From the NCBI GenBank assembly GCA_965116245.1, contig OZ220497.1, positions 870,939-934,938 on the forward strand: a stretch of DNA of 64,000 nt, in the 5' to 3' direction. The stretch comes from Acidimicrobiales bacterium (GTDB lineage Bacteria > Actinomycetota > Acidimicrobiia > Acidimicrobiales > Poriferisodalaceae). The notes below the pieces were generated by a model. It was given only the letters and a program-made list of their open reading frames with translations. It was not told the DNA's origin and did no database searches. Positions 18,281 through 41,209 of the stretch are shown here, piece after piece. A program made the translations under genes and the position numbers. Position 1 is the first letter of the stretch. Each line of letters starts with the position of its first letter.

Positions 18281-19327
18281 ATGAAGCTCAGCCTGATGAC
18301 CCTCGGTGATCGTCTGCCAGACCCAGTCACCGGCAGGACGATGACGCCGAAAGAGCGCTACGACATGTTGCTCGACTCGGCTGTCCTGGCCGACGCGCTC
18401 GGCTTTCACGGCATCAACCTCGGCGAGCATCATGGCCTGGGCTACGAACTGTCGGCCCCACCGGTGGTGCTAGGCGCAATTGCAACCCAGACCACCCAGC
18501 TCCGCCTGTCGACGGCTGTCGCGCTGCTCGCCAACCTCGATGCCTTTCGCTTGGCCGAGGACTACGCCACCGTTGACGTGATCTCGAACGGCCGGGTCGA
18601 CATCGTCGTCGGGCGTGGCAACTTCTTCGCTTCCACCTATGAGCTCTTCGGCCAGAACGTCGACGAGTCTCGGGCTCGGTTCGACGAGAACCTAGACCTG
18701 GTCTGCCGGCTGTGGAGCGGCGAGGAGACCCACTGGCAGGGCGAGTTCCGGCCGCCGATCAACGGCGAGCCGCTGATGCCCAAGCCACTTCAGCAGGGCA
18801 CCCCACCGATCTGGGTCGGAGGCGGCAGCTCCGAGGACACGGCCCGCATCACCGGCCAGCTTGGCCTCAAACTCATGCTGCCCAGCGCGTTTGGGCCCCC
18901 AGAGAAGTTCCGCGGAGCCGTTGACGTCTACCTCGAGGCCTTCTCCGACGCTGGCCACCACCACGAGCCCGAGGTCGGCGCGAGCTGGCATCTCAACGTC
19001 GCCAAGACAAGCCAGGAAGCACGTGCGCGCTGGGAGCCGCGCTATCGCTGCTACCACGCGTGGACCCAAGACCTCCTGAAGAAGGTGAACCCCAACGTTC
19101 CCGACTACCTGCTGAGGGGGTTCGATTACGAGTGGCTCTGTGCCAGCGGCCCCGCCGTGGTCGGAAGCCCCGCGGAGACCGCCGAGAGGCTCCACAAGCT
19201 CGGCGACATGCTTGGCGCGTCGCTCCACCTCTGCTACGTCGACATGGGTGGGCTGCCCGCTGGCGAATACCTCGAGATGGTGCAGCTACTGGGCGACGAA
19301 GTCCTGCCAGCTCTCGCCGACAAGTAG
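18281..19327 (+). CDS. LLM-class (luciferase-like) flavin-dependent oxidoreductase
   Basis: Contains MKLSLMTLGD...LGFHGINLGEHHG...VVGRGNF. Confidence 0.85.
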   Translation: MKLSLMTLGDRLPDPVTGRTMTPKERYDMLLDSAVLADALGFHGINLGEHHGLGYELSAPPVVLGAIATQTTQLRLSTAVALLANLDAFRLAEDYATVDVISNGRVDIVVGRGNFFASTYELFGQNVDESRARFDENLDLVCRLWSGEETHWQGEFRPPINGEPLMPKPLQQGTPPIWVGGGSSEDTARITGQLGLKLMLPSAFGPPEKFRGAVDVYLEAFSDAGHHHEPEVGASWHLNVAKTSQEARARWEPRYRCYHAWTQDLLKKVNPNVPDYLLRGFDYEWLCASGPAVVGSPAETAERLHKLGDMLGASLHLCYVDMGGLPAGEYLEMVQLLGDEVLPALADK

Positions 19328-19359
19328 CGGGCAAGTCAAACGAGCCGGACGGGGACACA

Positions 19360-21117
19360 ATGGGGGCAATCGACAACTGGGAGACGCTGGATCCCGGCGG
19401 GCTTCACTGGGAACGCGAGGACGTGCATTGGCCCGGCAGGCTCTCGCGCTGGTGCAGCCGCATTATGGTGCGCGACTACGCACGAGGTATCGAAGAACTC
19501 GCCCGAGACCGGGGCTGGCTTATCCAAGGCGTCGGGATACGTGAGGTTGACGGGTGTGTCTACTTCGGTGTCATCCCGATAGGCGGGCGAAACCTGCCAC
19601 AGCCACCGCGATGGCTCGCGCGGATCATCATGCCGCTTGCGCTCAAGGCCATCCCCGAATTCCGTCGGCGGGTGAAGGCGCTCAACCGGGACTACGACAC
19701 CAACTACTGGGCTGGCGTCATCGACGAGTGGACGAGCGAACGCGAGTCGGAGCTGCTCGCCGAAGCAGACCGGCTGCTATCGGCGAATCTCCACGATCTC
19801 ACCGATACCGACCTCGCGAACCTGGCAATCGAGGCGATGGACCACGCGGGCGCATGCATGAAGGAACACTTCCATCTGCACGGCGCCGGGATCCACGCGA
19901 TCTCGATCCTTGGGCGTGAGCTGACCGCACACCACGGGTTCAGCACGGCGGAGTTCGCCGGGCTCTTTGTCGGCCTGAGTGATGCCACAACGGGCCCTGC
20001 CGCTGCCCAACAGAAGATCGTGGATCGCGTACGCGACGCGTCCGCCGAAGATCAGCTACGCCAAGCGGCGACGCTCGATGATGTACGCGGCATCGGCCCC
20101 GCAGTGGGCGATGCGCTCGACGAGTATCTCACCTTCTGGGGTTGTCGAGCGATCCGTTACCAGGTGGCCTTCCCCACTGTCGGCGAGCGACCGGACTGGA
20201 TCCTGTCGGCGCTGCGAACCCAACTCAACAGCCCTTCGGGCACCCCGGACCACAAGAAGCGACAAACGAGACAGCGACAGGAGGCCGAGACCCGAGTCCT
20301 CGCGGCCCTCGGCGACACGGCATCCACCAGGGCGCGCATCTCCCTCGCACAAAAGGCAGCACCGATTCGCGAGGGAAACGAGACCGCGACCGTGGCGCTT
20401 CCCGCCGCCGCGGCTCGATTCATCGGCCTCGAGATGGGCAGGCGCCTAGTCGACCGGGGAGAGCTTGAGGCGCCTGATCATGTGTTCGACCTGGAGGTCG
20501 AGGAAGTCGCCGCCCTGTTGACATCCGGCCCAGAGAGTCCTACCGTGCCGGACAACGCCCGAGAACTCGCAGCGACACGCTACGACCATCGAACGTCAGA
20601 TGCCTCCGAACCGCCGCGCGAGTTCGGCAGGCCCGTTGAGCCACCAGACGTTGAGTTCTTCCCGCCGAGGGTCGCGGAAACGATGGGCGCCCTCCTCTGG
20701 CTCGTCGAAAAGGGCGGCGCTGGCGCGGAGGCGTCAGATGACGGTGATGCAGCCGCCGCCGCGGCAGCCGCCGCCGTGGAGACCGAGCCGGGCGCGCTCC
20801 GGCTCGATGGTGTTGCTGCATCCACCGGCATCTATGAGGGTCCTGCACGAATCATTGGGGGCGAGCACGACTTCGACAAATTGGAGGATGGCGATGTCAT
20901 GGTGTGTCCGATCACCTCGCCGATCTGGTCGATGCTCTTCCCCAAGATCGGCGCATTGGTGTGTGATGCGGGCGGTCCGATGAGCCATCCCGCGATCGTC
21001 GCTCGCGAGTTCGGCATTCCAGCCGTGCTCAACGTGCGGACGGCCACCGAGACGATTCAGGACGGTCAGCTTCTGCGAGTCGATGGCGACAACGGGATTG
21101 TGCTCGCCGTCGACTGA
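19360..21117 (+). CDS. PEP-utiliser swivel-His domain protein with a ~450-aa helical N-terminal region and no ATP-grasp
   Basis: The C-terminus is DGDVMVCPITSPIWSMLFPKIGALVCDAGGPMSHPAIVAREFGIPAV. ATG 19360 lies 32 nt after the LLM stop. Confidence 0.8.
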   Translation: MGAIDNWETLDPGGLHWEREDVHWPGRLSRWCSRIMVRDYARGIEELARDRGWLIQGVGIREVDGCVYFGVIPIGGRNLPQPPRWLARIIMPLALKAIPEFRRRVKALNRDYDTNYWAGVIDEWTSERESELLAEADRLLSANLHDLTDTDLANLAIEAMDHAGACMKEHFHLHGAGIHAISILGRELTAHHGFSTAEFAGLFVGLSDATTGPAAAQQKIVDRVRDASAEDQLRQAATLDDVRGIGPAVGDALDEYLTFWGCRAIRYQVAFPTVGERPDWILSALRTQLNSPSGTPDHKKRQTRQRQEAETRVLAALGDTASTRARISLAQKAAPIREGNETATVALPAAAARFIGLEMGRRLVDRGELEAPDHVFDLEVEEVAALLTSGPESPTVPDNARELAATRYDHRTSDASEPPREFGRPVEPPDVEFFPPRVAETMGALLWLVEKGGAGAEASDDGDAAAAAAAAAVETEPGALRLDGVAASTGIYEGPARIIGGEHDFDKLEDGDVMVCPITSPIWSMLFPKIGALVCDAGGPMSHPAIVAREFGIPAVLNVRTATETIQDGQLLRVDGDNGIVLAVD

Positions 21118-21129
21118 CCCGGCGGCCAG

Positions 21130-21396
21130 CTACCTGGCGAGCGCCACCGTGTGGCGCTCTGTTAACACCTCCATCCCCCACCGACCATTCTCCACGCCAA
21201 CGCCACTCGACTTGACCCCACTGAAGGGCTGATCCACGGCAGCGACAGCGCGTGCGTTAATCCACGTCATGCCAGCATCCAGACGCGACGCCAGCGCGGC
21301 AGCTTGTGCTGGATCAGCGGACCAAATCGAGGAATCAAGCCCGTAGTCGGTAGTGTGGTCATGCGGACGCTCCCCGAGTGAGGAAGCCGCGATCAC
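21130..21396 (-). pseudogene. aldehyde dehydrogenase C-terminal remnant (about 80 aa only)
   Basis: YGLDSSIWSADPAQAAALASRLDAGMTWINA...PFSGVKSSGVGVENGRWGMEVLTERHTV matches the ALDH C-terminus. The upstream ~400 codons are missing, and that space is occupied by the hydrolase gene in another frame. Confidence 0.7.
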
Positions 21397-22540
21397 TCAT
21401 CCACGAGCCGATATGGCCGAGGGCTTCTGCGAGATGAACACGGCCATCGGGACCAGCAAAGTAGTGGCTGGCGTGAGCCACGATGTAGCTCGCGAAGTCC
21501 GAGGCTGCGATAGCAGCTTCGATCTGTGCTGTGTGTTCCACCGGGCACGCGTCGTCGGCGCCAGCCGTGATGAGCAACGTTGGGATCTGGATCCGCGGCC
21601 CCGAGTCCACGATGTCAACCTGCGCGTCGTCGTAGCTCCACTGACTGAGCCAGCTCCGAAGCGATGTGAATCGCCCGAGCCCAGCCGGTGAGTTGTTGAC
21701 CACTCCAGGCTCGCCCATGTAGGTCATGTTTGGCTTTCGGTCATTCGGATCCACGGTGACATCGAGCCAGCGAGGATCCGCCATCGTGCCGTGGACCACG
21801 AAGCTTCGCTCCTCGGCGAAGCGCTCTTCCTCGGCCAATGCGGCGAGCTGCTCTTTGACCCAGGACGTGATCCGGCGGTTCCTTTGTAGCTGCGCTTCAC
21901 GATACTCCGCCACAAACCCATCACTGTATGGCGGCTGAGCGGGGTTCTTCGGATCGTAGAGATCAAACTCGGCTCGACGATGCGACTCGGGGCGCTGCTC
22001 GTCGGTGATCGAGGCGTCGAGCTGACCGGTCAGGAGATGGTGGCGGCTGCGATGTGTGGCCATGAGAAGCAGGCCGTCGACGGGCAGGAGCTCGACATCG
22101 ACCAGCGGGGTCGGCTCGCCGGAGGCGGCCGCCGAGATCACCCGTTGGGTGCTCTCCGCGACGTAGCCAGCCATCACGGCACCACCGCCGCTCCAGCCCG
22201 CGAGGACGACCTTTTCGTAGCCAAGACGCTCCCGGGTGTCTCGAACGCAAGCCGCGAGATCGACCAATACGTTCTCCATTTGCAGGGAGGCGTCACCGGT
22301 CGAATACCGGGTGGCGCACGCGACCACGTCGAACCCGGACCGTCCAAGCTGCGAAAACATCGGCAGATAACCGGGAGCTGCGATCGGGTGCATGCCGATG
22401 ATGGCTGTATCGGCCAGGGTCTCCCCTCGAAGGTGCTGTGCCTGGAGCACCACGTTGTTGCCAATCGAGCCGTAAACATCCTTGCGCGCTGACTGCTCGG
22501 TATGGACGATCAGGTATGGCTCCCGGTTGTACTTCGACAC
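21359..22540 (-). CDS. alpha/beta-hydrolase fold protein
   Basis: 393 aa with a GWSGG nucleophile elbow. GTG start. Confidence 0.7.
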   Translation of the reverse strand: MSKYNREPYLIVHTEQSARKDVYGSIGNNVVLQAQHLRGETLADTAIIGMHPIAAPGYLPMFSQLGRSGFDVVACATRYSTGDASLQMENVLVDLAACVRDTRERLGYEKVVLAGWSGGGAVMAGYVAESTQRVISAAASGEPTPLVDVELLPVDGLLLMATHRSRHHLLTGQLDASITDEQRPESHRRAEFDLYDPKNPAQPPYSDGFVAEYREAQLQRNRRITSWVKEQLAALAEEERFAEERSFVVHGTMADPRWLDVTVDPNDRKPNMTYMGEPGVVNNSPAGLGRFTSLRSWLSQWSYDDAQVDIVDSGPRIQIPTLLITAGADDACPVEHTAQIEAAIAASDFASYIVAHASHYFAGPDGRVHLAEALGHIGSWMSDRGFLTRGASA

Positions 22541-22655
22541 GATGTCCTACTCCTGTCTCGACATCACAATCCACTTACCATACACTGTTTGATTAATGGG
22601 GGTTTCTGACAGGGTTGGCAAGATGGCAAAGGCGCTGTCGCGCGAGCGCCAGCAC

Positions 22656-24857
22656 ATGCCGATTCACTACTCATTCACGGAGCCGTCGGCAGTCAGCCGA
22701 CAAGAACGGCGCGCCCTCCTCGGCGGCAAGGGTGCTGGCCTCGCTGACATGGCCCAGCGAGGCCTCCCGGTACCCCAGGGGTTCACGCTGACCACCGAGG
22801 CATGCCGTGCCTACCGCGCCTCAGGCTGGTCCACTGTTCACGAGACCGCGGTAAACGAAGGTCTCGGCAAGCTCGAAGAGCAGTCCTCGCGGAAACTCGG
22901 CTTCCGCGATCGCCCGCTACTCGTGAGCGTCCGGTCCGGGGCAGAGATCTCCATGCCAGGAATGATGGACACCGTGCTCAACGTGGGCATGAACGACGAG
23001 GTCGAGGCCGCGCTCGCTGCCGAGACCGGCGATCCGGAGTTCGCAGCCGATGCTCATCGACGCTTCGTGCTGGCGTACGCGGAAATCGTGGAGGGCGCGC
23101 CGGGCGATGTGCTCGCCGCCGTAGCCACCGCGTATCCCGCTGCAACGGCCCAAGAGCTGCGGAACTCACTCACTGACTCCGGCTACACAGTCCCGAAGGA
23201 TCCGGCTCGCCAACTCACCGAGGCCATCAAGGCCGTCTTCAGTTCCTGGGATACCCCAAGAGCCATCGCTTACCGTCAACATGAAGGCATTGCTGCGGAT
23301 CTCGGGACTGCGTGCTCGATCCAGCGGATGGTCTTTGGCAATCTCGGTTCCGACTCCGGTACCGGGGTCGCCTTCACCCGCCACCCTTCGACGGGCGAGC
23401 CCGGCCTTACCGGCGACCTCCTCGTCGGCGCCCAAGGCGAGGACGTCGTCTCAGGCGCACATCAGACACAGGCCCTGGACACGATGGCAACCATCTGGCC
23501 AGCGGCCTATGACCAGCTCGCCCAGCTCGCCAACGAACTCGAGCACGACTACCGCGACATGGTCGACATTGAGTTCACCGTCGAGAAGGGCATGCTCTGG
23601 CTCCTGCAGTCCCGCGTCGGCAAGCGCAGTCCAGCAGCGGTGTTCAGAACCGCGTTGGACATGGCGGAGGACCCGTCCTTCCCGCTCGACCGAGACGAGG
23701 CCGTCGAGCGATGCCGCTCCCTGTTCAACAACCCGCCGATGCGCACCTCGACCCCCACGGATCCAGGTTCGACGCACGAGGTGATCGCCGCTGGCCTCCC
23801 TGCGTCGCCCGGCCGAGTTTCGGGCGCACTCCACACTGACATTGAGCGAGCAATCCGCGAGGCCGAAGCGGGCAATGCCGTCATCCTGGCTCGACCAGAG
23901 ACCTCGCCGCGGGATGTCCACGGAATGACAGCCGCCAGCGGTCTGTTGACAACCCTGGGTGGCACGGTGAGCCACGCGGCCGTCGTCGCCCGTTCCTGGG
24001 GGCTGCCAGCTGTCGTCGGAGCGGACGATGTCGACGTCACCGACACCGGGATCACCTGTTCCGGTCGACACATCGAGATCGGGACAACCGTCACCATCGA
24101 CGGGACCTCAGGCGAATTGCTGCTTGGCGCACATGATGGCGATCTCGTCCACCTCCCGGAGGTCGCGACCATCAAGAGGTGGGCCCAGGAAGGGACGACC
24201 CGAGACTCGGACCAGGTTGACCTCGCCGAGAGCGACCAGCCCGAGTTCGAACCGGCCCTTCGCCTCCTCGCGATCAAGGGCGCTGCGACGGTGACGGTCC
24301 TCGCCGACGCCCTCGCTGCCACCGAGGCGGCCACTGCGACCGTCTTGGGCAAAGCCGAAGCGAACAGTCTGGCGACCGAGAGCGCGGGCACGTGGAAGCT
24401 GACCGAGAATGCCGCCCACGTCATCGCCTCGATAGCCGGATCACCGAGCGACGCGGAGCGAGAAGCGCTTGGCGCGATCCTCGACCGGTTCCATGGACCC
24501 AACCTGGAACTAAAAGCCCTCGTGACCCAATGGCAGATGCGCACGATCGACGACGAGGCCGTGGTCAACGACCACTCGGACTCTGCCTATGACCAATCGC
24601 TCATCGGCACGCTTCGTGACGACGTCCACCCGGCTGTGACCGCCATTGTCGAGGAAACTGCAGCGCTCACCGACCACATGGCGGACTACTCGAGACGGTT
24701 AGATCGGGCCCTCTTGCGACTTGAGCAGGGCGACCGCAGTTACATGGCACACCCGCTTCTCGACTCGTATCACACGGTCTGGTTCGAGCTCCATGAAGAA
24801 CTCATCCGTCTAGCCGGGCGCACCCGACGCGACGAAGCGGAGGCTGGCCGTGCCTAA
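22656..24857 (+). CDS. pyruvate-phosphate-dikinase-like protein: ATP-grasp plus swivel-His, with the TIM-barrel domain replaced by a wHTH-like/helical C-terminus
   Basis: RRALLGGKGAGLADMAQRGLPVPQGFTLTTEAC is the PPDK N-terminus. TTLGGTVSHAAVVARSWGLPAVVG is the phosphohistidine motif. There is no PEP/pyruvate-binding region. Alternative starts are 22596 and 22623. Confidence 0.8.
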   Translation: MPIHYSFTEPSAVSRQERRALLGGKGAGLADMAQRGLPVPQGFTLTTEACRAYRASGWSTVHETAVNEGLGKLEEQSSRKLGFRDRPLLVSVRSGAEISMPGMMDTVLNVGMNDEVEAALAAETGDPEFAADAHRRFVLAYAEIVEGAPGDVLAAVATAYPAATAQELRNSLTDSGYTVPKDPARQLTEAIKAVFSSWDTPRAIAYRQHEGIAADLGTACSIQRMVFGNLGSDSGTGVAFTRHPSTGEPGLTGDLLVGAQGEDVVSGAHQTQALDTMATIWPAAYDQLAQLANELEHDYRDMVDIEFTVEKGMLWLLQSRVGKRSPAAVFRTALDMAEDPSFPLDRDEAVERCRSLFNNPPMRTSTPTDPGSTHEVIAAGLPASPGRVSGALHTDIERAIREAEAGNAVILARPETSPRDVHGMTAASGLLTTLGGTVSHAAVVARSWGLPAVVGADDVDVTDTGITCSGRHIEIGTTVTIDGTSGELLLGAHDGDLVHLPEVATIKRWAQEGTTRDSDQVDLAESDQPEFEPALRLLAIKGAATVTVLADALAATEAATATVLGKAEANSLATESAGTWKLTENAAHVIASIAGSPSDAEREALGAILDRFHGPNLELKALVTQWQMRTIDDEAVVNDHSDSAYDQSLIGTLRDDVHPAVTAIVEETAALTDHMADYSRRLDRALLRLEQGDRSYMAHPLLDSYHTVWFELHEELIRLAGRTRRDEAEAGRA

Positions 24858-26037
24858 TGAATCCGACAACACAGTTGGCGCGCTGGCCGGGCTACGCGTC
24901 CTTGAAGTCGGCCACCTCATTGCGGGCCCATTCTGTGGCCACCTGTTCGCCGACCACGGCGCTGAGGTGATCAAGATCGAGCCGCCAGGCGGTGACCCGA
25001 TGCGTCACTGGGGTCGGGACTATCGGGGCATCGGCTTGTATTGGCCGATCATCGCACGCGGGAAGAAGTCGGTCACGCTGGACCTTCGTACCGACGGTGA
25101 TCGGCAATCATTTCGTCAGTTGGCTCGGGGCGCCGACGTGGTTATCGAGAACATGAGGCCTGGGGTGATGGAACGTTGGGGCCTCGGGCCCGACGATCTT
25201 CGAACCCGTAACGAAAAGCTCATCATGGTTCGGATCAGTGGCTACGGCCAGACCGGCCCGTACTCGGACCAAGCGGGTTATGGGCTCGTCGCCGAGGCGA
25301 TGAGCGGATTCCGGCACCTGTCCGGAGAACTGGGCCGCGCTCCGGTTCGCGTCGGAATTTCCATCGGGGACTCGCTCGCGGCGACGCAGGGCTTCATCGG
25401 CGCCCTGATGGCGCTCTGGCGCAGAGATCGGCCGGGTGGCACCGCACACGGACAGGTCATTGACGTTGCGCTGTACGAGGCGATGTTCATGTACATGGAG
25501 TCGATTGCGGCGGAGTACGACAAACTGACCGAGATTCGCCAACCCGCTGGGCCCACCTTGCCAGGCATCGCTCCCTCGAACGCATACCCGACCGCGGACA
25601 AACAATGGGTCCTCATCGGAGCCAACCAGGACTCAGTCTTCGCTCGCCTCGCTTCGGCAATCGGCCGACCTGACTGGGCCGAACCGCCCTCGCCGTTCGT
25701 CAATCATGTCGGACGCGGTGCCGCGCAGGCTGAACTCGACGGACTGATCGCCGAGTGGACCGCCGCCCAATCTCTCGACGCCATCCTCGACCACATGGCC
25801 GCCGCGGGGGTCCCGGCAGGCCACCTCTACACGGCTGCAGACATCGTCGCGGACCCGCACTACGCCGCGCGCGAGATGCTGATCCACATCGACGAGCCGA
25901 ACCTGAACAACGAGTCCGTGTTGCACCCAGGTGTCGTCCCGAAGCTGAGCGGCACGCCCGGCCGGATCCGCCGAGGCGCACCGCTCTTGGGCGAACACAA
26001 CGACGAAATCCGAGCAGAACTGGAGGCAGTGGCATGA
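24850..26037 (+). CDS. family III (CaiB/BaiF) CoA-transferase
   Basis: Contains LRVLEVGHLIAGPFCGHLFADHGAEVIKIEPPGGDPMR. The GTG start overlaps the upstream stop by 8 nt. Confidence 0.9.
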   Translation: MPNESDNTVGALAGLRVLEVGHLIAGPFCGHLFADHGAEVIKIEPPGGDPMRHWGRDYRGIGLYWPIIARGKKSVTLDLRTDGDRQSFRQLARGADVVIENMRPGVMERWGLGPDDLRTRNEKLIMVRISGYGQTGPYSDQAGYGLVAEAMSGFRHLSGELGRAPVRVGISIGDSLAATQGFIGALMALWRRDRPGGTAHGQVIDVALYEAMFMYMESIAAEYDKLTEIRQPAGPTLPGIAPSNAYPTADKQWVLIGANQDSVFARLASAIGRPDWAEPPSPFVNHVGRGAAQAELDGLIAEWTAAQSLDAILDHMAAAGVPAGHLYTAADIVADPHYAAREMLIHIDEPNLNNESVLHPGVVPKLSGTPGRIRRGAPLLGEHNDEIRAELEAVA

Positions 26038-29123: not shown

Positions 29124-29191
29124 CCTCTAACCTCCAAAGACCGAATCTAACAATGCTTGGTTACGCTGTGCAAACCCACCGCAAGACAGCA

Positions 29192-31640: not shown

Positions 31641-31739
31641 ACAGCGGCCTCCCGCAACCGAGTGTTACTGCAAATCTATCACTGTTTGATTAGCGAGACC
31701 AGGCGGTGTCGTAGGCGCATGCGAGCGACGGAAGTCCGG

Positions 31740-32882
31740 TCACGATGCGTCCGCAACGACGCCAGCGCCGATCCAGGCCTCGATTTCCTCGCTTGACGCG
31801 CCGATCTCTGCGAGCACCTGGGCAGCGCTGAGTCCACGAGACTCGATAGACGAGGTGGTGTCAACGTGTGCGGAGAGCCTGGGGGCTGGCCCACTATGAA
31901 GCCGATCGCCGTGCCGGTACACGGTCCGTCGCTCGACCAGATGCTCGTCGTCGTCAAGTTCGTCGATACCGAGCACCGGAGCCACGCAGGCGTCGACCCC
32001 CGCGAACGCGGCGTCCCACTCGGGTCGAGTTCGGTTGAGAAACTCGGCAGCGAACCGCCTGCGCAACGCTGGCCAGCGAGTGGCATCCCACTGGGCGGTG
32101 GGGTCCTCGCCTGGCGCGACCACGTGGATCAACGCCGCGTAGAACTGCGGCTCGATCGCACCGACGGAGTACCAGTCGCCGTCACGGCATTCGTAGACGC
32201 CGTAGAACGGGGCAGTCCCCGACAACAGGTGGGTGCCGCGGCGTCCGTCCCACAAGCCACTCGCCCGCTCGCCGAACGCGGCTGACAACAGCAGCGTCGC
32301 GCCGTCGACGATCGACGCATCGACAACTTGGCCCTCGCCTGTCTGTCGCCGCTCAAACAGAGCCAGGATCGTCCCGATCACGGCCATGAACGAGCCCGAA
32401 GCAAGGTCGCCGAGGAAGGCGAGCGGCACGACAGGCTCGTCGGTTCCGATCAACCCGAGCAGGCCGGAAGTCGCCAGATAGTTGATGTCGTGTCCCGCAC
32501 GCTGGGCGTAGGGACCCTGCTGGCCCCAGCCCGTGAGGCGGACGTAGACCAGCCCGGGGTTGCGGGCGAGCAACACGTCCGGGCCCAGCCCACGTCGCTC
32601 CATCGCGCCCGGCCGATTCCCCTCGAGCAGGACGTCACACTCGTCAGCGAGGCGGCGGATCACGTGGGGCCCGTCGGGCGCGCGAATGTCGATCACGAGT
32701 TCGGACTTCCCGCGGCGGAGAAACGCCGCGGGATCGGGCCCGGACGCGTCCGGCCGGAGCACGTGGATCACCTCGGCGCCGTAGTCCGCGAGCATCATCG
32801 TCGCGAACGGACCTGGACCGAGTGCGCTCATGTCGAGCACCCGGATACCTTCCAGCGGCCCAGCGTTGGACTCACGCATCAC
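31740..32882 (-). CDS. alpha-methylacyl-CoA racemase-like family III CoA-transferase
   Basis: AGPLEGIRVLDMSALGPGPFATMMLADYGAEVIHVLRPD closely resembles the N-terminus of mycobacterial MCR. Confidence 0.85.
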   Translation of the reverse strand: MMRESNAGPLEGIRVLDMSALGPGPFATMMLADYGAEVIHVLRPDASGPDPAAFLRRGKSELVIDIRAPDGPHVIRRLADECDVLLEGNRPGAMERRGLGPDVLLARNPGLVYVRLTGWGQQGPYAQRAGHDINYLATSGLLGLIGTDEPVVPLAFLGDLASGSFMAVIGTILALFERRQTGEGQVVDASIVDGATLLLSAAFGERASGLWDGRRGTHLLSGTAPFYGVYECRDGDWYSVGAIEPQFYAALIHVVAPGEDPTAQWDATRWPALRRRFAAEFLNRTRPEWDAAFAGVDACVAPVLGIDELDDDEHLVERRTVYRHGDRLHSGPAPRLSAHVDTTSSIESRGLSAAQVLAEIGASSEEIEAWIGAGVVADAS

Positions 32883-32965: not shown

Positions 32966-34294
32966 TCACCGGGTCAGGCGGCCAGCGGCAAGCTCGCCTG
33001 AGGTGACTGCGGCGTTGACGCTCGAGCGGGCAAGGTAGTCACCGGCAAGTTGGATCGACGAGCGCTCGCCTGTCGCCTCCCGAAGATGCACCAAGTCCCG
33101 ATACGTCCCCACCCGAGAGGCAACGAGCGCGGGGTCCCATCGCGTCACGACCGCCGTTTGCATCGAGTCGAGGGACCAGGCGGGAAAGCGGAGCCGCAGG
33201 GTGTCAACGAAACCATCGACTAATCGGTCGTCTTCGTCGGCCCAGTGCTCGTTGCTCCAGTCGGTCATGTAGAACGCGGTCAGGATTCCCCCACCCGGGG
33301 GCGTGCGACCGTCGGCCATGTTGTGATTCAGGCCGACCACCGGAAGGGATGGATCGATCTCGCGAGGGATGAGCACCATCGAGGATGTCTCGTCAGGAGC
33401 GGCTGCCAGCCCGAGACTGACGACGATCGTCCTGGAGTGCGACAGCGCAGACAAGTACTGACGCGCCTTGGGCGTGAGGCGTTCGACAAGATCGGGAACC
33501 CGCGACGCAGGCGTGGCCACCACGACTCCGTCGACCGTGTCCGATCGCGGGAAGCTGCCGGCGGTCCACTCCACGTTCACTCCCCGACCCGCAGGTGACA
33601 CCCGGTTGACCTCGGCACCGACCTCCACGTCGAGTCGCTGCGCGATTCGTTCAAGAAAGAAGCCGACGCCATCGGAGTGCGAGAGCAGACGACCGGCCAG
33701 CAGCAACGACTTCATGGCTCCGAACAGGTCCACGATCGACGTTTGGTCAGGCTCGACCAGGAACAGGGCCCGACACAGGGGGCGGATGAACAACGTCACC
33801 ACCTGCTCGTCAACACCTCGGCGGCGGCACCAGTGATCGACGGATTCGACGTCGAACCGCGCCGCACTCGCGAGGTCGGAGTCGTTCACCGATCGATAGA
33901 TTCGAAGGAAAGGACCGAGCAGCGTCGTGATCCGCAGCTTCGCCCCCGCACTGAGGTGACCCGCCGACAGGAACGTCCACGGACGCGCGCGGTCGATACG
34001 ATGAACTGCCCCATCGTGCAGCGTGCCGATGACCGGCGGCACGCGGTCCACCTCGGCACCGACGCTCGCGTCGGCCAACAGGCGCTCCACAGCGTCGTAG
34101 GTGTCCGGCAGAGCCCCAGCGCCCACATCGAATCGATAGCCATCCGCCTCGATCGTGCGACAGCGTCCACCAACGCGCCCTGAAGCCTCGAGCACCCGGA
34201 CCGACCAACCAGCCTGATGAAGACGGAACGCTGCCGAGATGCCCGCGGCACCGGCGCCGACGACTAGCGCTCGAGGCACTCGAATTCCCGGCAT
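32966..34294 (-). CDS. FAD-dependent oxidoreductase (amine-oxidase / protoporphyrinogen-oxidase-like fold)
   Basis: Contains ALVVGAGAAGISAAFRLHQAGWSVRVLEASGRVGGRCRT and the C-terminal QLAGDY motif. Confidence 0.8.
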   Translation of the reverse strand: MPGIRVPRALVVGAGAAGISAAFRLHQAGWSVRVLEASGRVGGRCRTIEADGYRFDVGAGALPDTYDAVERLLADASVGAEVDRVPPVIGTLHDGAVHRIDRARPWTFLSAGHLSAGAKLRITTLLGPFLRIYRSVNDSDLASAARFDVESVDHWCRRRGVDEQVVTLFIRPLCRALFLVEPDQTSIVDLFGAMKSLLLAGRLLSHSDGVGFFLERIAQRLDVEVGAEVNRVSPAGRGVNVEWTAGSFPRSDTVDGVVVATPASRVPDLVERLTPKARQYLSALSHSRTIVVSLGLAAAPDETSSMVLIPREIDPSLPVVGLNHNMADGRTPPGGGILTAFYMTDWSNEHWADEDDRLVDGFVDTLRLRFPAWSLDSMQTAVVTRWDPALVASRVGTYRDLVHLREATGERSSIQLAGDYLARSSVNAAVTSGELAAGRLTR

Positions 34295-34368
34295 TTATCC
34301 ATCATTGATTGGATTATGTCAGACTGTCTCGACACTGTCAGTCAGCCGGATGAGGAGAGCGCAGATCG

Positions 34369-35712
34369 ATGACCGACACACCGCACGCGATCATCATCGG
34401 AGCGGGGATCGCCGGGCTCAGCGCGGGGTTCCGGCTGCATGAAGCTGGCTGGCGGGTCACGGTCCTGGAGGCGAGTGACCACGTCGGCGGTCGCATGAGC
34501 AGTGTGGAAATCGACGGGTTCATCTGCAACCGGGCCGCGAACATCTTGCCCGGCTCGTACGATGCCATCCGGCAGCTCGCCGCCGATGTTGGCATCGGCG
34601 ACAAGCTCGGCGTGACGGACGGCGTCATCGCGACACTGCGCGACGGACACATTCATCGACTGCGATCAGACAAGCTCATTCGTGACGGCCTCCGGACGCG
34701 GCTGGTGCCGTGGCGGACGAAACTCCGTGCAATCCCGATCCTGATCGACGCCCGGCGCATGCGCGGGAGCCTGAGCTACCAGAACCTCGGCGCGGCCGCC
34801 GACTTCGACGTTGAAACCGTCGCTGAATACTGTGCCCGGCGACTCACCCCCGAGCTTCGCGAGTACGTCGTCGAGCCGGTGGTCCGGGCCCTCTACGTCT
34901 CGGAGGCGGAGCGGCTGTCAGTGGTGGACTTCTTCTTCGCAGCATTGAACTTCATCGGCTCCGGGTTCATGCAGTACCCGGGCGGCATCGGGTTCCTGGC
35001 CGAAGCGCTCGCCGCGACGCTGGACGTTCGCCTTGAATGTCGCGTCGAGAACGTGAGCCACACTGGCGAGGGCGCGCAGGTGACCTGGGAACATAACGGC
35101 ACGCAGGAGGTCGCGGTAGCCGATGCTGCCGTCATCGCCACCGTCGGAGCCGTCGTCCCCGAGTTGTACCCCGATCTGGACAAACGAGCGTCGGAGATAC
35201 TGCGCACAGACCTCGAGTACGCGTCGGTGTTTAACGCCCACTTTGGACTCGCCGAGCGACCCGAGGAACCAGCATCGATTATCCAGGTGCCCCGGGCCGA
35301 GGACGAGGCGCTTTGCGTGGTCACCCTCGACCACAATGCCAGCCCGTCGATCGTTCCCGCTGGCAAAGGGAAACTCGCGACCTACTGGCACCACCACTGG
35401 TGTTCAAGCCGCATGGATCGCGAAGACGCGGACCTGCTCGCCGAGATGCTTCCTTCCGTTCGGAAGGTCGTGCCCGACGTCGAGGCGTTGACCGTCACCT
35501 CGCGTATCGATCGCTGGCCGCTCGGCGTCGTCCGTAGTCGCCCGGGCACGTATGCGCTCATGCGAGAACTCGGCTCTCGCATCGACGCCCGATCACCGAT
35601 CCAACTGGCTGGCGACTACTTCTCGGCGTCGTCAACCAACGGCTGCGCTGTGTCTGGGGATCTCGCTGCCGAGCGACTCCTCGGGACCCGATCCGACTTG
35701 CGGCTCGCATGA
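34369..35712 (+). CDS. FAD-dependent oxidoreductase, divergently transcribed paralogue of 32966..34294
   Basis: Contains AIIIGAGIAGLSAGFRLHEAGWRVTVLEASDHVGGRMSS and QLAGDY. Confidence 0.8.
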   Translation: MTDTPHAIIIGAGIAGLSAGFRLHEAGWRVTVLEASDHVGGRMSSVEIDGFICNRAANILPGSYDAIRQLAADVGIGDKLGVTDGVIATLRDGHIHRLRSDKLIRDGLRTRLVPWRTKLRAIPILIDARRMRGSLSYQNLGAAADFDVETVAEYCARRLTPELREYVVEPVVRALYVSEAERLSVVDFFFAALNFIGSGFMQYPGGIGFLAEALAATLDVRLECRVENVSHTGEGAQVTWEHNGTQEVAVADAAVIATVGAVVPELYPDLDKRASEILRTDLEYASVFNAHFGLAERPEEPASIIQVPRAEDEALCVVTLDHNASPSIVPAGKGKLATYWHHHWCSSRMDREDADLLAEMLPSVRKVVPDVEALTVTSRIDRWPLGVVRSRPGTYALMRELGSRIDARSPIQLAGDYFSASSTNGCAVSGDLAAERLLGTRSDLRLA

Positions 35713-35720
35713 GTTTACGA

Positions 35721-35768
35721 TACGTTGTTGGATTACCGTACGTTGTTTGATTACCGTTTGGTTACCGG
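35721..35768 (+). promoter_or_regulatory. tandem AT-rich box, 2 full copies plus a partial (tacgttgtt[g/t]gattaccg), upstream of the SCP2-P450 operon
   Basis: Read directly. It belongs to the island-wide motif family described in the findings. Confidence 0.5.
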
Positions 35769-35787
35769 TACTGAGAGGATTCAGTGT

Positions 35788-36198
35788 ATGGGCATGTTCC
35801 GGGACGCCGAGGAGCTGTACACCGTCCAAGGCGGCTTCTTCGACCTCATCACGGTCGATTCAAGCCTCGGACCCAAGTTCGCAGCATCCAACACATCGTT
35901 CCTCGTGAAATACACCGCCCCCGAGGCCTTCATCCTCGTGGACTGCACTGGTGACGAGAACCAGGTCATCTACCCGGCCAGCCCCGACACGGATGCGGAG
36001 ATCACCCTCACCATGGAGGCCGATGCGGGGCACCGGTTCTGGCTCGGCGACCTCAACCTCACCGGAGCGATCGCTCGGCGAAAGGTCACGATCCATGGCT
36101 CGATGAAGGACGCGCTCCGTCTGCTTCCGGCGATGAAGCCTGCCTTCCCGAAGTACCGCACCTACTGCGTTGAGAACGGCCACGCAGACAAGATCTGA
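35788..36198 (+). CDS. SCP2 sterol-carrier-like lipid-binding domain protein
   Basis: 136 aa. GHRFWLGDLNLTGAIARRKVTIHGSMKDALRLLPAMKPAFPKY is typical of actinobacterial SCP2 proteins. Confidence 0.7.
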   Translation: MGMFRDAEELYTVQGGFFDLITVDSSLGPKFAASNTSFLVKYTAPEAFILVDCTGDENQVIYPASPDTDAEITLTMEADAGHRFWLGDLNLTGAIARRKVTIHGSMKDALRLLPAMKPAFPKYRTYCVENGHADKI

Positions 36199-36206
36199 GG
36201 ACACCA

Positions 36207-37511
36207 ATGACCGAGCTTGCGAAGACGGCGAATCCTCAGACCGACGACACCGTAGATCGACTACTCGATGATTTCGATCACCAATCTGCGGACTTCGCCC
36301 ACCACTGGGCCGAGGTGTACGGCAAGGCCCGGGCCAACCAATGCCCGGTGATCCACTCCGACAAGCATGGAGGGTTCGACGCCGTCCTCGGCTATGAAGA
36401 TGTGGTCACGGCGTTTCGCGACTGGAAGACCTTCGCCTCCGAGCGGCTGCTCGACGAAGACGGGATCGAGATGGAGGGTGGCGTGGGCATTCCCGCCCAT
36501 GTGTTCCGGATCGGGTTCCTCGAGATGGATCCGCCGCAGTCACTCAATCTGCGCCGACTCTGCAATCCGTGGTTCAACCGGAACACCATCGATGCAGCTC
36601 GGCCCCGCCTGGGCGAGATCATGCACTGGGCCTTCGACAGCGTGGCGGAGAAGGGCCAGTGTGATGTCGTCACCGACCTCGTGACCCCGTTCCAGTGTGT
36701 GTCGATCATGGACCTCCTGGGGATTCCTCTTGAGAAGTGGCCGCGCTACAAGGAAGTGGTTGACCAGGAGGTCGCCCAGGAGGAGTCGAGCCTCGAAGGG
36801 ATGCAGTGGCTTCTCGCCGACATCTTCGATGAGATCGAGCGGCAGACTGCCGAAAGGGGCCACGGGCTGCTGGCCGTCCTCGCGTCAAGTGAACTCGATG
36901 GCGAACGATTGGACCCCGAGCTCGTGACCGAGCTGATCCTCATGTTGCTCCTCGGGGGGATGGACACCACCATCGCGACGGTCGGGCTCGCGGTTCGGCA
37001 TCTCCACGACACACCAGAGGATCGAGCGCGCCTAAAGGAGAGCCCCGACCTCATCGAGTCGTTCGTCGAGGAGGTGCTGCGTTTCTACACGCCAGCGACC
37101 GGAATGGGTCGTACGATCCGTACGCCGACCACGTTCGCGGGCCAATCCTACGAGCGTGGCGACCGCGTCTACCTCGCGATCGCCTCCGCGAATCGCGACG
37201 AGCGGGCCTTCGACCGAGCCGACAAGTTCGTGATCGACCGCTCGCCCAACCCACACATGAGCTTCGGCACCGGCACCCATCACTGCATCGGCTCCGAGTT
37301 CGCCCGAAGCAACACCCAACTCTTCCTCACGACGTTGCTCAGCAGGATGCCCGACTTCGAGGTGGACGTTGCCGCCGCTCACATGGCGACCAGCATCCCG
37401 CACGCCCGGTCCTACCTCACGCTCCCGATCAGCTACGACCCCGGCCGATCATTCGGCCTCGGCGACAATGCATGGCCCGAGTTCAAGACCGACCCCATCC
37501 GGCCGGTCTAG
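36207..37511 (+). CDS. cytochrome P450
   Basis: Contains FGTGTHHCIGSEFAR and EEVLRFYTP. Confidence 0.95.
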   Translation: MTELAKTANPQTDDTVDRLLDDFDHQSADFAHHWAEVYGKARANQCPVIHSDKHGGFDAVLGYEDVVTAFRDWKTFASERLLDEDGIEMEGGVGIPAHVFRIGFLEMDPPQSLNLRRLCNPWFNRNTIDAARPRLGEIMHWAFDSVAEKGQCDVVTDLVTPFQCVSIMDLLGIPLEKWPRYKEVVDQEVAQEESSLEGMQWLLADIFDEIERQTAERGHGLLAVLASSELDGERLDPELVTELILMLLLGGMDTTIATVGLAVRHLHDTPEDRARLKESPDLIESFVEEVLRFYTPATGMGRTIRTPTTFAGQSYERGDRVYLAIASANRDERAFDRADKFVIDRSPNPHMSFGTGTHHCIGSEFARSNTQLFLTTLLSRMPDFEVDVAAAHMATSIPHARSYLTLPISYDPGRSFGLGDNAWPEFKTDPIRPV

Positions 37512-38549: not shown

Positions 38550-38600
38550 TTCACTGAGTCGACAGCAAGTCAACGACCGCCCAAACACATCAGGATTGGT

Positions 38601-39575
38601 ATGGAAGTTCACGGAGGGGGCACGGCGCCCGAGCTCGGGTCCGAGGACGAAGGGCACCACCCGACCGGCAACGACGAGACCTGGCAGGAGAGCGTGGTTC
38701 TCGTCTGGTGGGACCTCACTGCCGAGGTCGGGGGAATGCACCGCATCGGCTATGAGCCGAACTGGCGAGACGGCGGCCAAGTCTCATTGTGGAACAACAT
38801 CTTCTCTGCCGATGCTGTCTTCAAGCGCTCCGCGACGATCCCCCTCACGGACGTTCACCCGACCGGCACGATCTTCTCTTCGGGCGATGGCACCTGCCAG
38901 TTCGAATACACCGACCACGCGATCTGGACGATCTCAGAGGAGGAGGTCCAGGCCGAGTTGCACGTGACCGATGCCCACACGCCGGTTGACATCTATCCCA
39001 AGCAGTCCACCCTCGGCCAAGACTTCGCGCCGAATCACATGGAGGTCGGCGGAACGGTGCGGGGGACATGCACCATCGATGGGCGCCGCTACGACGTCGA
39101 TGGGCTAGCCTTTCGCGACCACGGCTGGGGGACACGTCGGTGGGATACCCTGCTGAGCCATCGCTGGGTCGCTGGCGCATTCGCGCCCGACTTCAGCTTC
39201 TTCGCGGTGTCGTTCCACACCAGCGATGACGAAATCGTCGGTTTCGGCTGCGTGATCCGGGAGGGTGTCCTAATCTACGCCCAGGTCGACATCGTGGCGT
39301 ACCTTGAAGTCGACGGTCTCACCCACCGAGGTGGTCGAGTGACGATGTCTCTGACGACAGGCGAGACGCTCGTGCTCGAGTGCGACGCCTTGCAGAAGGG
39401 AACCGTTTCCTGGATTCACGACATTGCCTGCGTCGACACGATGTGCAAGGTGACTCTCGGCGACCGCGTGGGAATGTGTGATTTTGAGACGACCAACAAC
39501 GCACTTCGAGGGTCACATCAACCGAGGAAGGCGATCGGCGGCTACATCGAGAACGGGCTGCACCGAATCCAGTGA
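38601..39575 (+). CDS. conserved-looking beta-rich protein of unknown function (RDHGWGTRRW motif; possibly CrtC/AttH-like)
   Basis: 324 aa with no TM segment. The family assignment is a weak recollection. Its stop overlaps the GTG of the next gene (GTGA). Confidence 0.6.
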   Translation: MEVHGGGTAPELGSEDEGHHPTGNDETWQESVVLVWWDLTAEVGGMHRIGYEPNWRDGGQVSLWNNIFSADAVFKRSATIPLTDVHPTGTIFSSGDGTCQFEYTDHAIWTISEEEVQAELHVTDAHTPVDIYPKQSTLGQDFAPNHMEVGGTVRGTCTIDGRRYDVDGLAFRDHGWGTRRWDTLLSHRWVAGAFAPDFSFFAVSFHTSDDEIVGFGCVIREGVLIYAQVDIVAYLEVDGLTHRGGRVTMSLTTGETLVLECDALQKGTVSWIHDIACVDTMCKVTLGDRVGMCDFETTNNALRGSHQPRKAIGGYIENGLHRIQ

Positions 39576-41209
39576 GAACCGCAGGAGACGCGATGGACCT
39601 CAACCGTAGCCCTGTACACACCCGATCGCACCCGACCACGAGATGGTCCCGGGCGAACTTCGCCGAAGCGGTCCAAGGAGTCCAGACTCCCCTGGGCTGG
39701 ACATTTTGGGATCACGTCGCCGAGACCTCGGTGCGCCAGTGCTTCTCCGACATCGGTGGTATTGCGGCCAAGGACGCCCCGCCCCCAGCCGACCCGAACC
39801 TTAAGTTCAACGCGCCGTTCTTCGGTCTCCCGGCTGGCAACGTCACCTTCTTTCACTCTATCGGCGAGGCGCTCCCGGGAACCTCTGGCGACGTCGTCAT
39901 CAAGCAAATGTTCGGGGAGGAGCCCGGGGTCGTCACCCCCAGCGCCCGCGCGAGCTGGCTCCGACCGATCATTGCGGGATTCAAGATGCCAGCGGCTGCG
40001 ATCCGCTCGACGCGGCGGGTCGTCACCGTCCACAACCAAGTCGCAGACTGGTGGCGTCGAGGGGTGCTCAAGCAACCGCCGGACGACCTGGCCGGAGCGC
40101 AACGGCTGTTGAACGAGGCGGCCGAGTGGTTCATCCGCGTTGGACGGCATCACGCGACGGTGTCGCTGATCGGTCAAGCCCTAGTCGAACAAGTTGAACT
40201 CGTCATTGAGCACGCGTTCGGTGACCGAAGCCGAACCTCTGATGTCCTCACCGGCCTCGGGGGCATGGAGGAGACAAAACTCATGACCGCGATCTGGGAG
40301 GCGGCCCAGGGGCAAAGCGACGTCGCCTCGATCATCGCCGCCTTCGGCTTCCACGGACCCGACGAGGGAAACGTGACGAGCGTCTCGTGGCGAGAAGACG
40401 ACGGCCCGGTTCACGACCTCGTGGCCAACTATGAGGATGCCGGGGTGCATGACCCACGGGAGCGAGAACGCGAGCAGACCACCAAGCGCGAGGTCGTCGA
40501 GCGGGAACTCCTCGATGCGCTCGACCCGCTCAGACGCCAGCGCGCCAAGATCGTGCTTCGCCTCACGCGCACGCTCGTCCCCCGCCGCGAGATCGGCAAG
40601 GCTGGCTTCCTGATGGCGATCGATGGCGCACGCTGCGCCGCACGGTGCGCTGGTAGTGAGATGGCGCGGGCCGGAACGCTCAACGAAACCGACGACATCT
40701 TTTTCGTCACCTTCGACGAACTGGCAAGCGGGGATCAGGTCGACCGCGCAACGATCGAGTCGCGCAAACGACACCATCGCCACTTCGAAGGGCTGACCGT
40801 TGCCCAGGCATGGACTGGGAACCCGGACCCGATCGAAGACCCTGACGTCAGCGAGGCCAGTGCGCCGCGAACGAGGCCGCCGGGAAACGTCGTCCAAGGG
40901 ATCGGCGTCGTGGGTGGGACAGTCCGGGGGCGCGCGCGGGTCTTGGACGACCCGACCTCGGGTCCACTGGCGCCAGGCGAGATACTCGTTTGCCGAACGA
41001 CTGATCCGAGCTGGACACCGCTATTCCTGGTCGCTGACGCTCTGGTGATCGACACTGGCGGATCGATGAGCCACGGTGCGATCGTGGCGCGGGAACTCGG
41101 CGTGACGTGCGTGATCAACACGATCGATGGCACGGCCGCGATTCCCGACGGCGCCATGATCGAAGTCAACGGCAGCGACGGCACCGCCGTCATCATCGAT
41201 GCCGAATAG
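39572..41209 (+). CDS. PEP-utiliser swivel-His domain protein, paralogue of 19360..21117
   Basis: The C-terminus is GEILVCRTTDPSWTPLFLVADALVIDTGGSMSHGAIVARELGVTCV. The alternative start is ATG 39593. Confidence 0.8.
   Translation: MRTAGDAMDLNRSPVHTRSHPTTRWSRANFAEAVQGVQTPLGWTFWDHVAETSVRQCFSDIGGIAAKDAPPPADPNLKFNAPFFGLPAGNVTFFHSIGEALPGTSGDVVIKQMFGEEPGVVTPSARASWLRPIIAGFKMPAAAIRSTRRVVTVHNQVADWWRRGVLKQPPDDLAGAQRLLNEAAEWFIRVGRHHATVSLIGQALVEQVELVIEHAFGDRSRTSDVLTGLGGMEETKLMTAIWEAAQGQSDVASIIAAFGFHGPDEGNVTSVSWREDDGPVHDLVANYEDAGVHDPREREREQTTKREVVERELLDALDPLRRQRAKIVLRLTRTLVPRREIGKAGFLMAIDGARCAARCAGSEMARAGTLNETDDIFFVTFDELASGDQVDRATIESRKRHHRHFEGLTVAQAWTGNPDPIEDPDVSEASAPRTRPPGNVVQGIGVVGGTVRGRARVLDDPTSGPLAPGEILVCRTTDPSWTPLFLVADALVIDTGGSMSHGAIVARELGVTCVINTIDGTAAIPDGAMIEVNGSDGTAVIIDAE

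Follow-up and report, generated by a model that had tools for sequence, protein, structure and literature searches.

Gene linkage of a VadK-type ATP-grasp protein with ATP-grasp-less rifampicin phosphotransferase-like proteins suggests a possible multi-component histidine-swivel dikinase

A stretch of 64,000 nucleotides (hereafter the window) from an Acidimicrobiales bacterium of the Poriferisodalaceae (assembly GCA_965116245.1, contig OZ220497.1, positions 870,939 to 934,938) carries a catabolic gene island with three genes for phosphohistidine-swivel proteins, which we call A, B and C. With moderate confidence we propose from sequence comparison that the three proteins work together as a multi-component, ATP-dependent dikinase of the histidine-swivel kind, like HpeHI, CreHI and PpsAB, but with a different ATP component. 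A and C have the substrate-side architecture of HpeH, CreH and PpsA, namely a substrate domain of the rifampicin phosphotransferase (RPH) type followed by a swivel. B, judged by homology, is a truncated pyruvate, phosphate dikinase (PPDK) of the VadK/Rv1127c type fused to a partner of the Rv1126c type. A sequence-only reading of this DNA had thought the combination undescribed, which does not hold as worded, because small-molecule dikinases made of a separate ATP-grasp protein and a substrate-domain/swivel protein are established as PpsAB, CreHI and HpeHI (PMC12167813). The idea of a split dikinase is thus already known and the VadK-type ATP partner is not: we found no literature linking VadK-type proteins with ATP-grasp-less (graspless) RPH-like proteins, and the VadK paper is silent on the latter (PMC13400623). 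In the window and in about 35 loci of other species, the gene content points to a pairing of VadK/Rv1126c-type proteins with graspless RPH-like ones, which would join two so far unconnected lines of work, on two-component dikinases and on VadK, a virulence factor of Mycobacterium tuberculosis.

The swivel domain (PF00391) lies at residues 509-579 of A (nt 20884-21096, E=7e-22, His in GGPMSH), 429-506 of B (nt 23880-24113, E=9e-20, His in GGTVSH) and 467-537 of C (nt 40970-41182, E=4e-19, His in GGSMSH), and the three swivel motifs quoted in the sequence-only reading are all present in the translations. When the three proteins were checked with Pfam, the ATP-grasp domain PPDK_N (PF01326) was found in B alone (E=6e-47) and the TIM-barrel domain PF02896 in none of them, both as read before. 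A and C were also rightly said to lack an ATP-grasp: neither matches PF01326, and with 585 and 545 residues they are too short for a further grasp of 310 residues. In A, a helical substrate-binding domain (residues 1-470) precedes the C-terminal swivel, and its AlphaFold model (pLDDT 86.5, pTM 0.88) matches the Listeria enzyme RPH-Lm (5fbt) over the full length (Foldseek E=5e-17, TMq 0.61), every PDB entry other than RPH matching over the swivel only. C combines an RPH-type substrate domain with a C-terminal swivel and aligns in phmmer to residues 574-867 of RPH-Lm (5fbs, E=5e-35), which are the second half of the rifampicin (RIF)-binding domain and the swivel. These two comparisons bear out the layout proposed earlier, an RPH minus its ATP-grasp, and the comparison with phenylphosphate synthase made along with it is apt.

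A and C are distinct subfamilies among the HpeH/CreH/PpsA-like proteins. The C-terminal 250-290 residues of the two (A 293-585, C 293-543) are homologous with an hhalign probability of 99.9, and hhalign detected no homology between their first 290 residues; the N-terminal halves are, by this measure, diverged. Their homologues carry PF27448 (Rph_4th) together with PF00391, and both proteins stay below the curated cutoffs of all NCBIfam models, with 98 bits for A and 142 bits for C on the RPH model NF041857 (cutoff 999). Only about 25 proteins make up the A family, from Acidimicrobiales and metagenome-assembled genomes of Actinomycetota, and the C family is large, with more than 470 matches including Mycobacterium, Pseudonocardia, Conexibacter and Solirubrobacteraceae. 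Both proteins have counterparts of 90-93% identity in 'Candidatus Poriferisocius sp.' (Acidimicrobiia, family Ca. Hopanoidivoransaceae), a name on which the literature search yielded no pertinent work. The swivel His is kept in 25/25 proteins of the A family, in 119/120 of the C family (144/145 together, with the GGxxSH core) and in all B-family proteins, and the mean column identity of the family alignments is 74% for A and 59% for C.

With regard to B, Rv1127c of M. tuberculosis was renamed VadK in 2026 and is a truncated PPDK that autophosphorylates His422 with ATP/Mg. Growth on cholesterol and propionate depends on it, as does virulence, and for purification it was co-expressed with its operonic partner Rv1126c, from which it was separated by a column wash with 2 M NaCl (PMC13400623). 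Residues 31-512 of B match PPDK structures (E=2e-112), with the ATP-site motifs GGKGA, SVRSGA, DIEFTV and LQSR aligned. B is not a canonical PPDK, as it lacks PF02896 and reaches 509 bits on TIGR01828 (PPDK) against a cutoff of 843, covering only positions 5-511 of the 865 of the model. On NF004531, the model for the short mycobacterial PpdK of the Rv1127c type, it scores 470 bits against a cutoff of 456, and it is 39% identical to the VadK orthologue of Mycobacterium asiaticum. Behind the swivel there is a third conserved domain of about 215 residues (24210..24854), the tail, which the sequence-only reading left unmentioned. It shares 37% identity (E=5e-35) with the whole of the 201-aa open reading frame (ORF) that follows VadK in M. 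asiaticum, and this locus (L075) is syntenic with EphC-Rv1125-Rv1126c-Rv1127c. Beyond the 201-aa ORF follow genes for a 414-aa protein, an alpha/beta hydrolase, 6PGD and G6PD, the last two presumably corresponding to the zwf/gnd part of the gene order near Rv1127c in strain H37Rv. This homology and synteny therefore make B, on comparative grounds, a VadK-Rv1126c fusion.

The tail contains the invariant motif DSYH[TD][VI]W[FM]ELHE in the family alignment, and in its model (pLDDT 91.6) a winged helix precedes a helical bundle. Only the former, at the N-terminus, resembles MarR/PadR/VanR regulators in Foldseek, the tail has no PDB fold match at E<=1e-3, and no model of Pfam or NCBIfam covers it. 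The family comprises 2028 representative clusters, mostly of stand-alone proteins of about 200 aa, the remainder being C-terminal domains of 700-800-aa proteins. A locus of M. palustre with a VadK-like gene and a tail gene (L081) was considered as the prp/VadK locus and rejected, since it is a paralogous pair in a lipid-catabolic cluster and the true syntenic locus is that of M. asiaticum. No gene of the PrpD or citrate-synthase type was detected by Pfam among the larger ORFs of the window, a few ORFs of 200-320 aa outside the island not being scanned. One B-type protein (P0163, 1194 aa) seemingly shares its chain with a 2-oxoacid dehydrogenase E2 (lipoyl, E3-binding and catalytic domains); we did not use this E2-acyltransferase-B fusion, because the junction is of low complexity and likely reflects a frameshift or an artefact of gene calling.

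The functional coupling of B to A and C is supported by comparative genomics. A search with the tail alignment gave matches in at least 576 species, and the best 80 loci were scanned with custom hidden Markov models. In the neighbourhood survey, which the sequence-only reading had itself proposed, a graspless swivel protein was located within 10 kb of the tail domain in 35/80 loci, or in 22 of the 50 loci with complete flanks, and the three-gene set recurs in the sister genome. A separate graspless gene is within 3 kb in 19/34 loci (distance between domain matches), and the loci with tail and graspless gene cover at least 18 taxon labels, among them Acidimicrobiia, Nocardia, Gordonia, Streptomyces, Mycobacterium, Proteobacteria and Chloroflexota. 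The arrangement in M. palustre (L081) resembles the window in that the genes for acyl-CoA synthetase (ACS), P450, flavoprotein, VadK-like protein, tail, luciferase-like monooxygenase (LLM), DUF7065 protein and graspless protein are found together. Compact operons were also seen, with the order RD-swivel, tail, grasp-swivel or RD-swivel, ACS, tail, grasp-swivel, where RD denotes the RPH-type substrate domain. Moreover, the modules are joined in single polypeptides in different ways. The tail is fused behind grasp-swivel in B and many other proteins; RD-swivel-grasp-swivel-tail occurs in P0156 (on three contigs from two sequencing runs), in P0258 and in a locus of Myxococcota (L030); and RD-swivel-tail is followed by a grasp-swivel gene in L015 and L143. 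The tail is thus fused to either partner, as expected of a bridging subunit.

Among the graspless partners of the tail loci, 24 are HpeH-like. A second type, with 9 members of 810-850 aa, combines an NAD-epimerase at the N-terminus with a remnant of the RPH domain and a swivel; these proteins match NF004520 (PRK05865) over the full length and have no PPDK_N. This architecture is presumably that of Rv2047c of M. tuberculosis. We had taken all 'CN+swivel' neighbours in Nocardia for HpeH-like proteins, which was rejected because these nine are the epimerase-fused ones. Such neighbours of the VadK/tail gene were observed in Nocardia, Nocardioides and Haloechinothrix (L014 12387-14822, L042 12654-15212, L016 10512-12884 and L037 6508-9066).

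From the side of A and C, 34 loci of at least 9 kb with 46 graspless genes were surveyed. Neither the window nor the 80 B-side loci nor these 34 loci yielded an ATP-grasp-only gene of the HpeI/CreI/PpsB type, and the VadK type is the only ATP-grasp that is recurrently associated with the graspless family. Graspless genes often come several per locus and often adjoin P450 and DUF7065 genes. The fact that most of them have no ATP-grasp neighbour fits one donor with many acceptors, an unlinked donor being also possible. Two loci are recorded here in their own right. One locus (L001 4767-15699, JGI Ga0467042_0000224) has four Rph_4th+swivel genes without ATP-grasp inside 11 kb, along with genes for a P450, a ferredoxin, a histidine phosphatase, an alcohol dehydrogenase, DUF7065/64, an enoyl-CoA hydratase, a glyoxalase and a short-chain dehydrogenase; the 16 kb covered contain no gene for an ATP-grasp. 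M. florentinum (L089 4217-7758) has, 3 kb upstream of a graspless homologue of C, a gene for a full-length RPH-like protein of 920 aa (PPDK_N+Rph_4th+swivel) and behind it one for a Y_phosphatase3 protein; this is the sole full-length RPH-like gene in the 34 loci.

In the mechanism that we propose, B would bind ATP in its PPDK-type grasp and form a phosphohistidine, and A and C, which have a swivel His of their own and no nucleotide site, would be substrate-specific phosphotransferases. The phosphoryl group would pass from B to A and C, either directly, the grasp of B phosphorylating the swivels of A and C, or by a His-to-His relay from the swivel of B to theirs. The direct route is sterically plausible because the RD-swivel-grasp order of the triple fusions is that of a circularly permuted RPH. 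As for the Rv1126c-like tail, its most likely role is to keep the components of the complex together. A and C would then phosphorylate an oxygen, of a hydroxyl or an enol, on a hydrophobic intermediate. This intermediate would stem from the pathway encoded around them by the genes for P450, LLM, flavoprotein, SCP2 and CoA enzymes. Judging from the gene content, phosphorylation of hydroxyls installed by the P450s or the LLM is plausible; in the Cre pathway the order is reversed, the P450 acting on a substrate already phosphorylated. By analogy, phosphorylation may serve trapping or scavenging as with HpeHI, provide a handle for a P450 as in the Cre pathway, or produce a leaving group as with the 25-hydroxysteroid kinase. 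The sequence-only reading had cast B as one shared ATP-grasp module serving two substrate modules. The link between B and A/C gains from the fusions and the recurrent co-localisation, but a plain ATP-grasp module does not describe B, since the VadK-type swivel His and the fused Rv1126c-like domain are left unexplained by it.

Several observations weigh against a dikinase of A, B and C. The invariant swivel His of B is lacking in HpeI, CreI and PpsB, so that a simple ATP-grasp acting in trans would leave B unexplained. In A and C, position -8 of the motif T/S-x-x-G-G-x-x-x-H given for HpeH is Cys and Ile, respectively, as read from the sequences, and in the A family hhalign places Glu at the equivalent of K670 of RPH, which we take to be a catalytic residue. 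C is 14.7 kb from B in the window, only L124, L143 and the fusion locus L090 carry a VadK-type gene among the 34 loci on the A/C side, or about 3-4 of some 30 independent loci within the flanks retrieved, and 45/80 loci on the B side have no graspless partner within 10 kb, including the M. asiaticum locus syntenic with vadK of M. tuberculosis. Moreover, the tail takes the place of the PEP/pyruvate domain of PPDK in the sequence order, so B could be a self-contained enzyme. In that case B would be a kinase of the VadK/Rv1126c type with a target of its own, be it a protein or a small-molecule ligand of the tail, and would share only the pathway or regulon with A and C, which would be charged by another ATP-grasp elsewhere in the genome such as an HpeI-like protein or a full-length RPH paralogue. 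We consider this unlikely, though far from negligible. The order grasp-swivel-tail does parallel grasp-swivel-TIM barrel of PPDK, and the invariant polar cluster of the tail (K102, Q109, N120-D121-H122, D124, Y160, R163, S186-Y187-H188, E193, H195-E196 and R206) suggests a binding or active site. Most genes of the C family have no VadK-type neighbour, and M. florentinum provides a full-length RPH-like gene near a graspless homologue. The published model of VadK is likewise a regulatory binding to enzymes of the methylcitrate cycle, on which it is proposed to act, and not phosphorylation of a small molecule (PMC13400623). On the other hand, a self-contained B would hardly account for three configurations in which RD-swivel and VadK/tail modules are joined in one polypeptide, for a co-localisation of 44%, which is far above chance for a few copies per genome, or for the absence of an ATP-grasp-only gene beside any of the 46 graspless genes.

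It is improbable, in our view, that the system runs mainly in the ATP-forming or phosphate-exchanging direction, with A and C taking phosphate from a phosphorylated intermediate and B regenerating ATP with AMP and PPi from the adjacent ACS, or with A and C only shuttling phosphate between small molecules. HpeH alone is able to move phosphate between two phenolic substrates (PMC12167813), the nucleotide partial reaction of PPDK is reversible according to established enzymology, an ACS forming AMP and PPi is translationally coupled to the kinase operon or lies inside it in 26/80 loci, and steroid phosphoesters can have a very high group-transfer potential (PMC8449060). This reverse direction is, however, wholly inferential, the window has no other kinase for the substrate, and the characterised relatives all consume ATP in vivo. 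The view that A and C are catalytically inert or structural paralogues, clustering with B by coincidence, deserves hardly any credence: it could draw on the curated cutoffs that neither protein reaches and on the missing T/S at -8, but the catalytic His and GGxxSH core in 144/145 homologues, the high column identity of both families, the synteny from Acidimicrobiia to Mycobacterium and the existence of B-type fusions all speak against it. A dikinase composed of A, B and C remains our preferred reading.

In a wider and tentative extension, which we put forward with some doubt, VadK/Rv1126c-type proteins may be general ATP-driven donors for HpeH-like and Rv2047c-type swivel proteins in a hub-and-spoke manner, possibly as a relay like that of the phosphotransferase system (PTS), acting on lipid, terpenoid or steroid intermediates. 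To our knowledge, Rv2047c is the only other swivel protein in M. tuberculosis; it might then be the missing acceptor of VadK, and the effect of VadK on cholesterol and propionate utilization might reflect phosphorylation of small molecules rather than regulation of proteins. If the proposed pairing is true, the dikinase family would reach into non-aromatic, probably isoprenoid or steroid, catabolism, and a function could be given to thousands of proteins that are annotated only as 'PEP-utilizing enzyme' or 'phosphohistidine swiveling domain'. The 2028 clusters of the Rv1126c family would obtain a role, and the target of VadK would become accessible to a concrete test in vitro.

In the window, whose GC content is 60-66%, the three genes belong to a catabolic island at about 14.9-46 kb (Table 1), with housekeeping genes on both sides: hemA/C/D, an aminotransferase, proC and a GT4 glycosyltransferase on one flank and a potassium channel, seryl-tRNA synthetase and cytochrome oxidase on the other. 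The island is probably a lipid- or terpenoid-degrading gene set of a sponge-associated actinobacterium, and a branched-chain-type ABC transporter is also among its genes. In a sequence search of the PDB, the P450 of the 28569..32882 segment is closest to P450cin (E=2.5e-70) and that of the 32966..37511 segment to the steroid C26-monooxygenases CYP125/CYP142 (E about 1e-45). These two P450s, together with SCP2 and the CoA enzymes, therefore suggest that the substrate class is probably isoprenoid or steroid-like rather than phenolic.

Table 1. Genes and domains of the island, with positions in the window.
Feature	Position	Strand	Basis or remark
Enoyl-CoA hydratase/isomerase (ECH)	17288..18187	-	Pfam ECH_1 E=2e-34; opens conserved ECH-LLM-A-hydrolase block
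Luciferase-like monooxygenase (LLM)	18221..19327	+	Pfam Bac_luciferase E=8e-55
Protein A, ATP-grasp-less RPH/HpeH-like module	19360..21117	+	585 aa; Pfam, Foldseek, hhalign
Alpha/beta hydrolase between A and B	21359..22540	-	Pfam Hydrolase_4/Abhydrolase_1
Protein B, N-terminal two thirds, PPDK-type ATP-grasp and His-swivel	22596..24209	+	Pfam PPDK_N and PEP-utilizers; NF004531
Protein B, C-terminal tail, winged helix and helical bundle	24210..24857	+	Family alignment, structure model
Family III CoA-transferase	24850..26037	+	Pfam CoA_transf_3 E=2e-119
AMP-forming acyl-CoA synthetase (ACS)	26034..27554	+	Pfam AMP-binding
TetR regulator of the island	27699..28421	-	Pfam TetR_N
VOC/glyoxalase-type protein, Zn-alcohol dehydrogenase, P450, second CoA-transferase III	28569..32882	-	Pfam
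Two amine-oxidase/phytoene-desaturase-like flavoproteins, SCP2 lipid-carrier protein, second P450	32966..37511	.	Pfam
231-aa ORF	37683-38378	-	No Pfam or NCBIfam match; between second P450 and DUF7065/64 gene
DUF7065+DUF7064 protein directly upstream of C	38601..39575	+	Pfam
Protein C, ATP-grasp-less RPH/HpeH-like module	39572..41209	+	545 aa; Pfam, phmmer

The sister genome, 77-93% identical, has the same island (L006 and L008). The order ECH-LLM-A-hydrolase is found also in L005 and L008, where the LLM gene adjoins that of A, and the hydrolase between A and B is kept in L005, L008, L010 and L020. The junctions read directly from the sequence agree with those described before: the LLM stop at 19327 and the ATG of A at 19360 leave a gap of 32 nt, the TAA of B (24855-57) and the GTG of the CoA-transferase (24850) overlap by 8 nt, the CoA-transferase and ACS overlap in ATGA at 26034-37, and the DUF7065/64 gene and C overlap in GTGA at 39572-75. 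The tight linkage of B to the CoA genes is hence real in the window, but the coupling to the CoA-transferase is not conserved, as the sister genome keeps only a remnant of this gene, about 115 aa long (L008 10431-10778), and has B directly before ACS; ACS homologues accompany B-type genes in 26/80 loci, sometimes within the kinase operon. Two start sites may be revised. B likely begins at ATG 22596 rather than at 22656 as assumed earlier, a 100% identical protein of 753 aa (P0153) being on record, and C may start at ATG 39593 instead of GTG 39572, its 93% identical homologue P0033 being called with 537 aa and a gap of 17 nt. In the sister genome the 231-aa ORF is conserved in place (L006 8091-8786). 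An AveC-like protein (spirocyclase family, PF17198; 14932-16005, minus strand) is encoded where the island begins on the left and adjoins two ORFs without Pfam matches (12318-13463 and 16271-17131).

The protein encoded next to C had been described as an unknown beta-rich protein; its overlap with C stands, and it is not without a family, since Pfam assigns DUF7065 and DUF7064. DUF7065/64 genes are located beside graspless RPH-like genes in the window and in L001, L006, L081, L100, L126, L132 and L153. We also observed them beside APH-type phosphotransferase genes in L007 and L089, hence beside two unrelated kinase families (window 38601-39575, L001 7663-8616, L081 17714-18760, L007 17875-18921, L089 17931-18977). 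For the 25-hydroxysteroid kinase, an APH-type enzyme, the partner lyase that eliminates phosphate has yet to be assigned (PMC8449060). By analogy, DUF7065/DUF7064 proteins may act on phosphorylated intermediates.

Finally, the proposed system can be compared with known ones. Two-component dikinases were reportedly dealt with in earlier work by Schmeling in 2004 and Du in 2016. HpeHI, described in 2025, is a two-component homologue of RPH, in which HpeI is an ATP-grasp alone and HpeH consists of a RIF-binding-like domain and a swivel; HpeH requires HpeI and its own His581, and HpeH alone swaps phosphate between substrates (PMC12167813). The likeness of the window to HpeHI, CreHI and PpsAB lies in the architecture of A and C, in ATP binding on a separate polypeptide and in the location in aerobic actinobacterial catabolic clusters, a P450 being present also in the Cre pathway. 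Their ATP part, however, is a grasp-only protein of about 40 kDa of the PEP-synthase/RPH type, encoded beside its partner and one per partner, whereas here the single ATP-grasp is of the PPDK type, comes with a swivel His of its own and with an Rv1126c-like domain, and faces two graspless genes (elsewhere up to four). The known substrates of those systems are phenols, in contrast to the isoprenoid- or steroid-like context here, and A and C stand apart from their subunits as subfamilies that miss every curated cutoff and are alignable with each other only in the C-terminal halves. PpsABC follows a similar logic with three parts including a small accessory, PpsC, which is a CBS-domain protein; in our case the ATP part has its own swivel and the accessory is a winged-helix/helical domain without a fold match in the PDB.

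RPH (5FBS/5HV1; PMC4844700) is the only solved structure that matches A over the full length and uses the same swivel mechanism, but it carries an ATP-grasp at the N-terminus of one single chain, a domain missing from A and C, and there is no context of antibiotic resistance here. MarK was considered as a relative and rejected, being a different ATP-grasp-like homodimeric kinase without a swivel partner. The 25-hydroxysteroid kinase of Sterolibacterium denitrificans, which phosphorylates a steroid side-chain alcohol with ATP to make it a leaving group, was rejected as a homologue, because it is of the APH type and unrelated to the swivel enzymes; it is a functional analogy only, and it co-purified with acyl-CoA synthetase, phytoene-dehydrogenase-like and luciferase-like proteins, classes that are also present in the island (PMC8449060). 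VadK shares with the first 510 residues of B the truncated-PPDK architecture and the conserved catalytic His, and the tail of B is homologous to the mycobacterial ORF after VadK, by synteny Rv1126c, the partner in the salt-resistant complex. On the other hand, the two proteins are fused in B, no prpDC or methylcitrate genes turned up nearby among the larger ORFs, and B is encoded in an island of P450 and CoA genes together with graspless RPH-like proteins.

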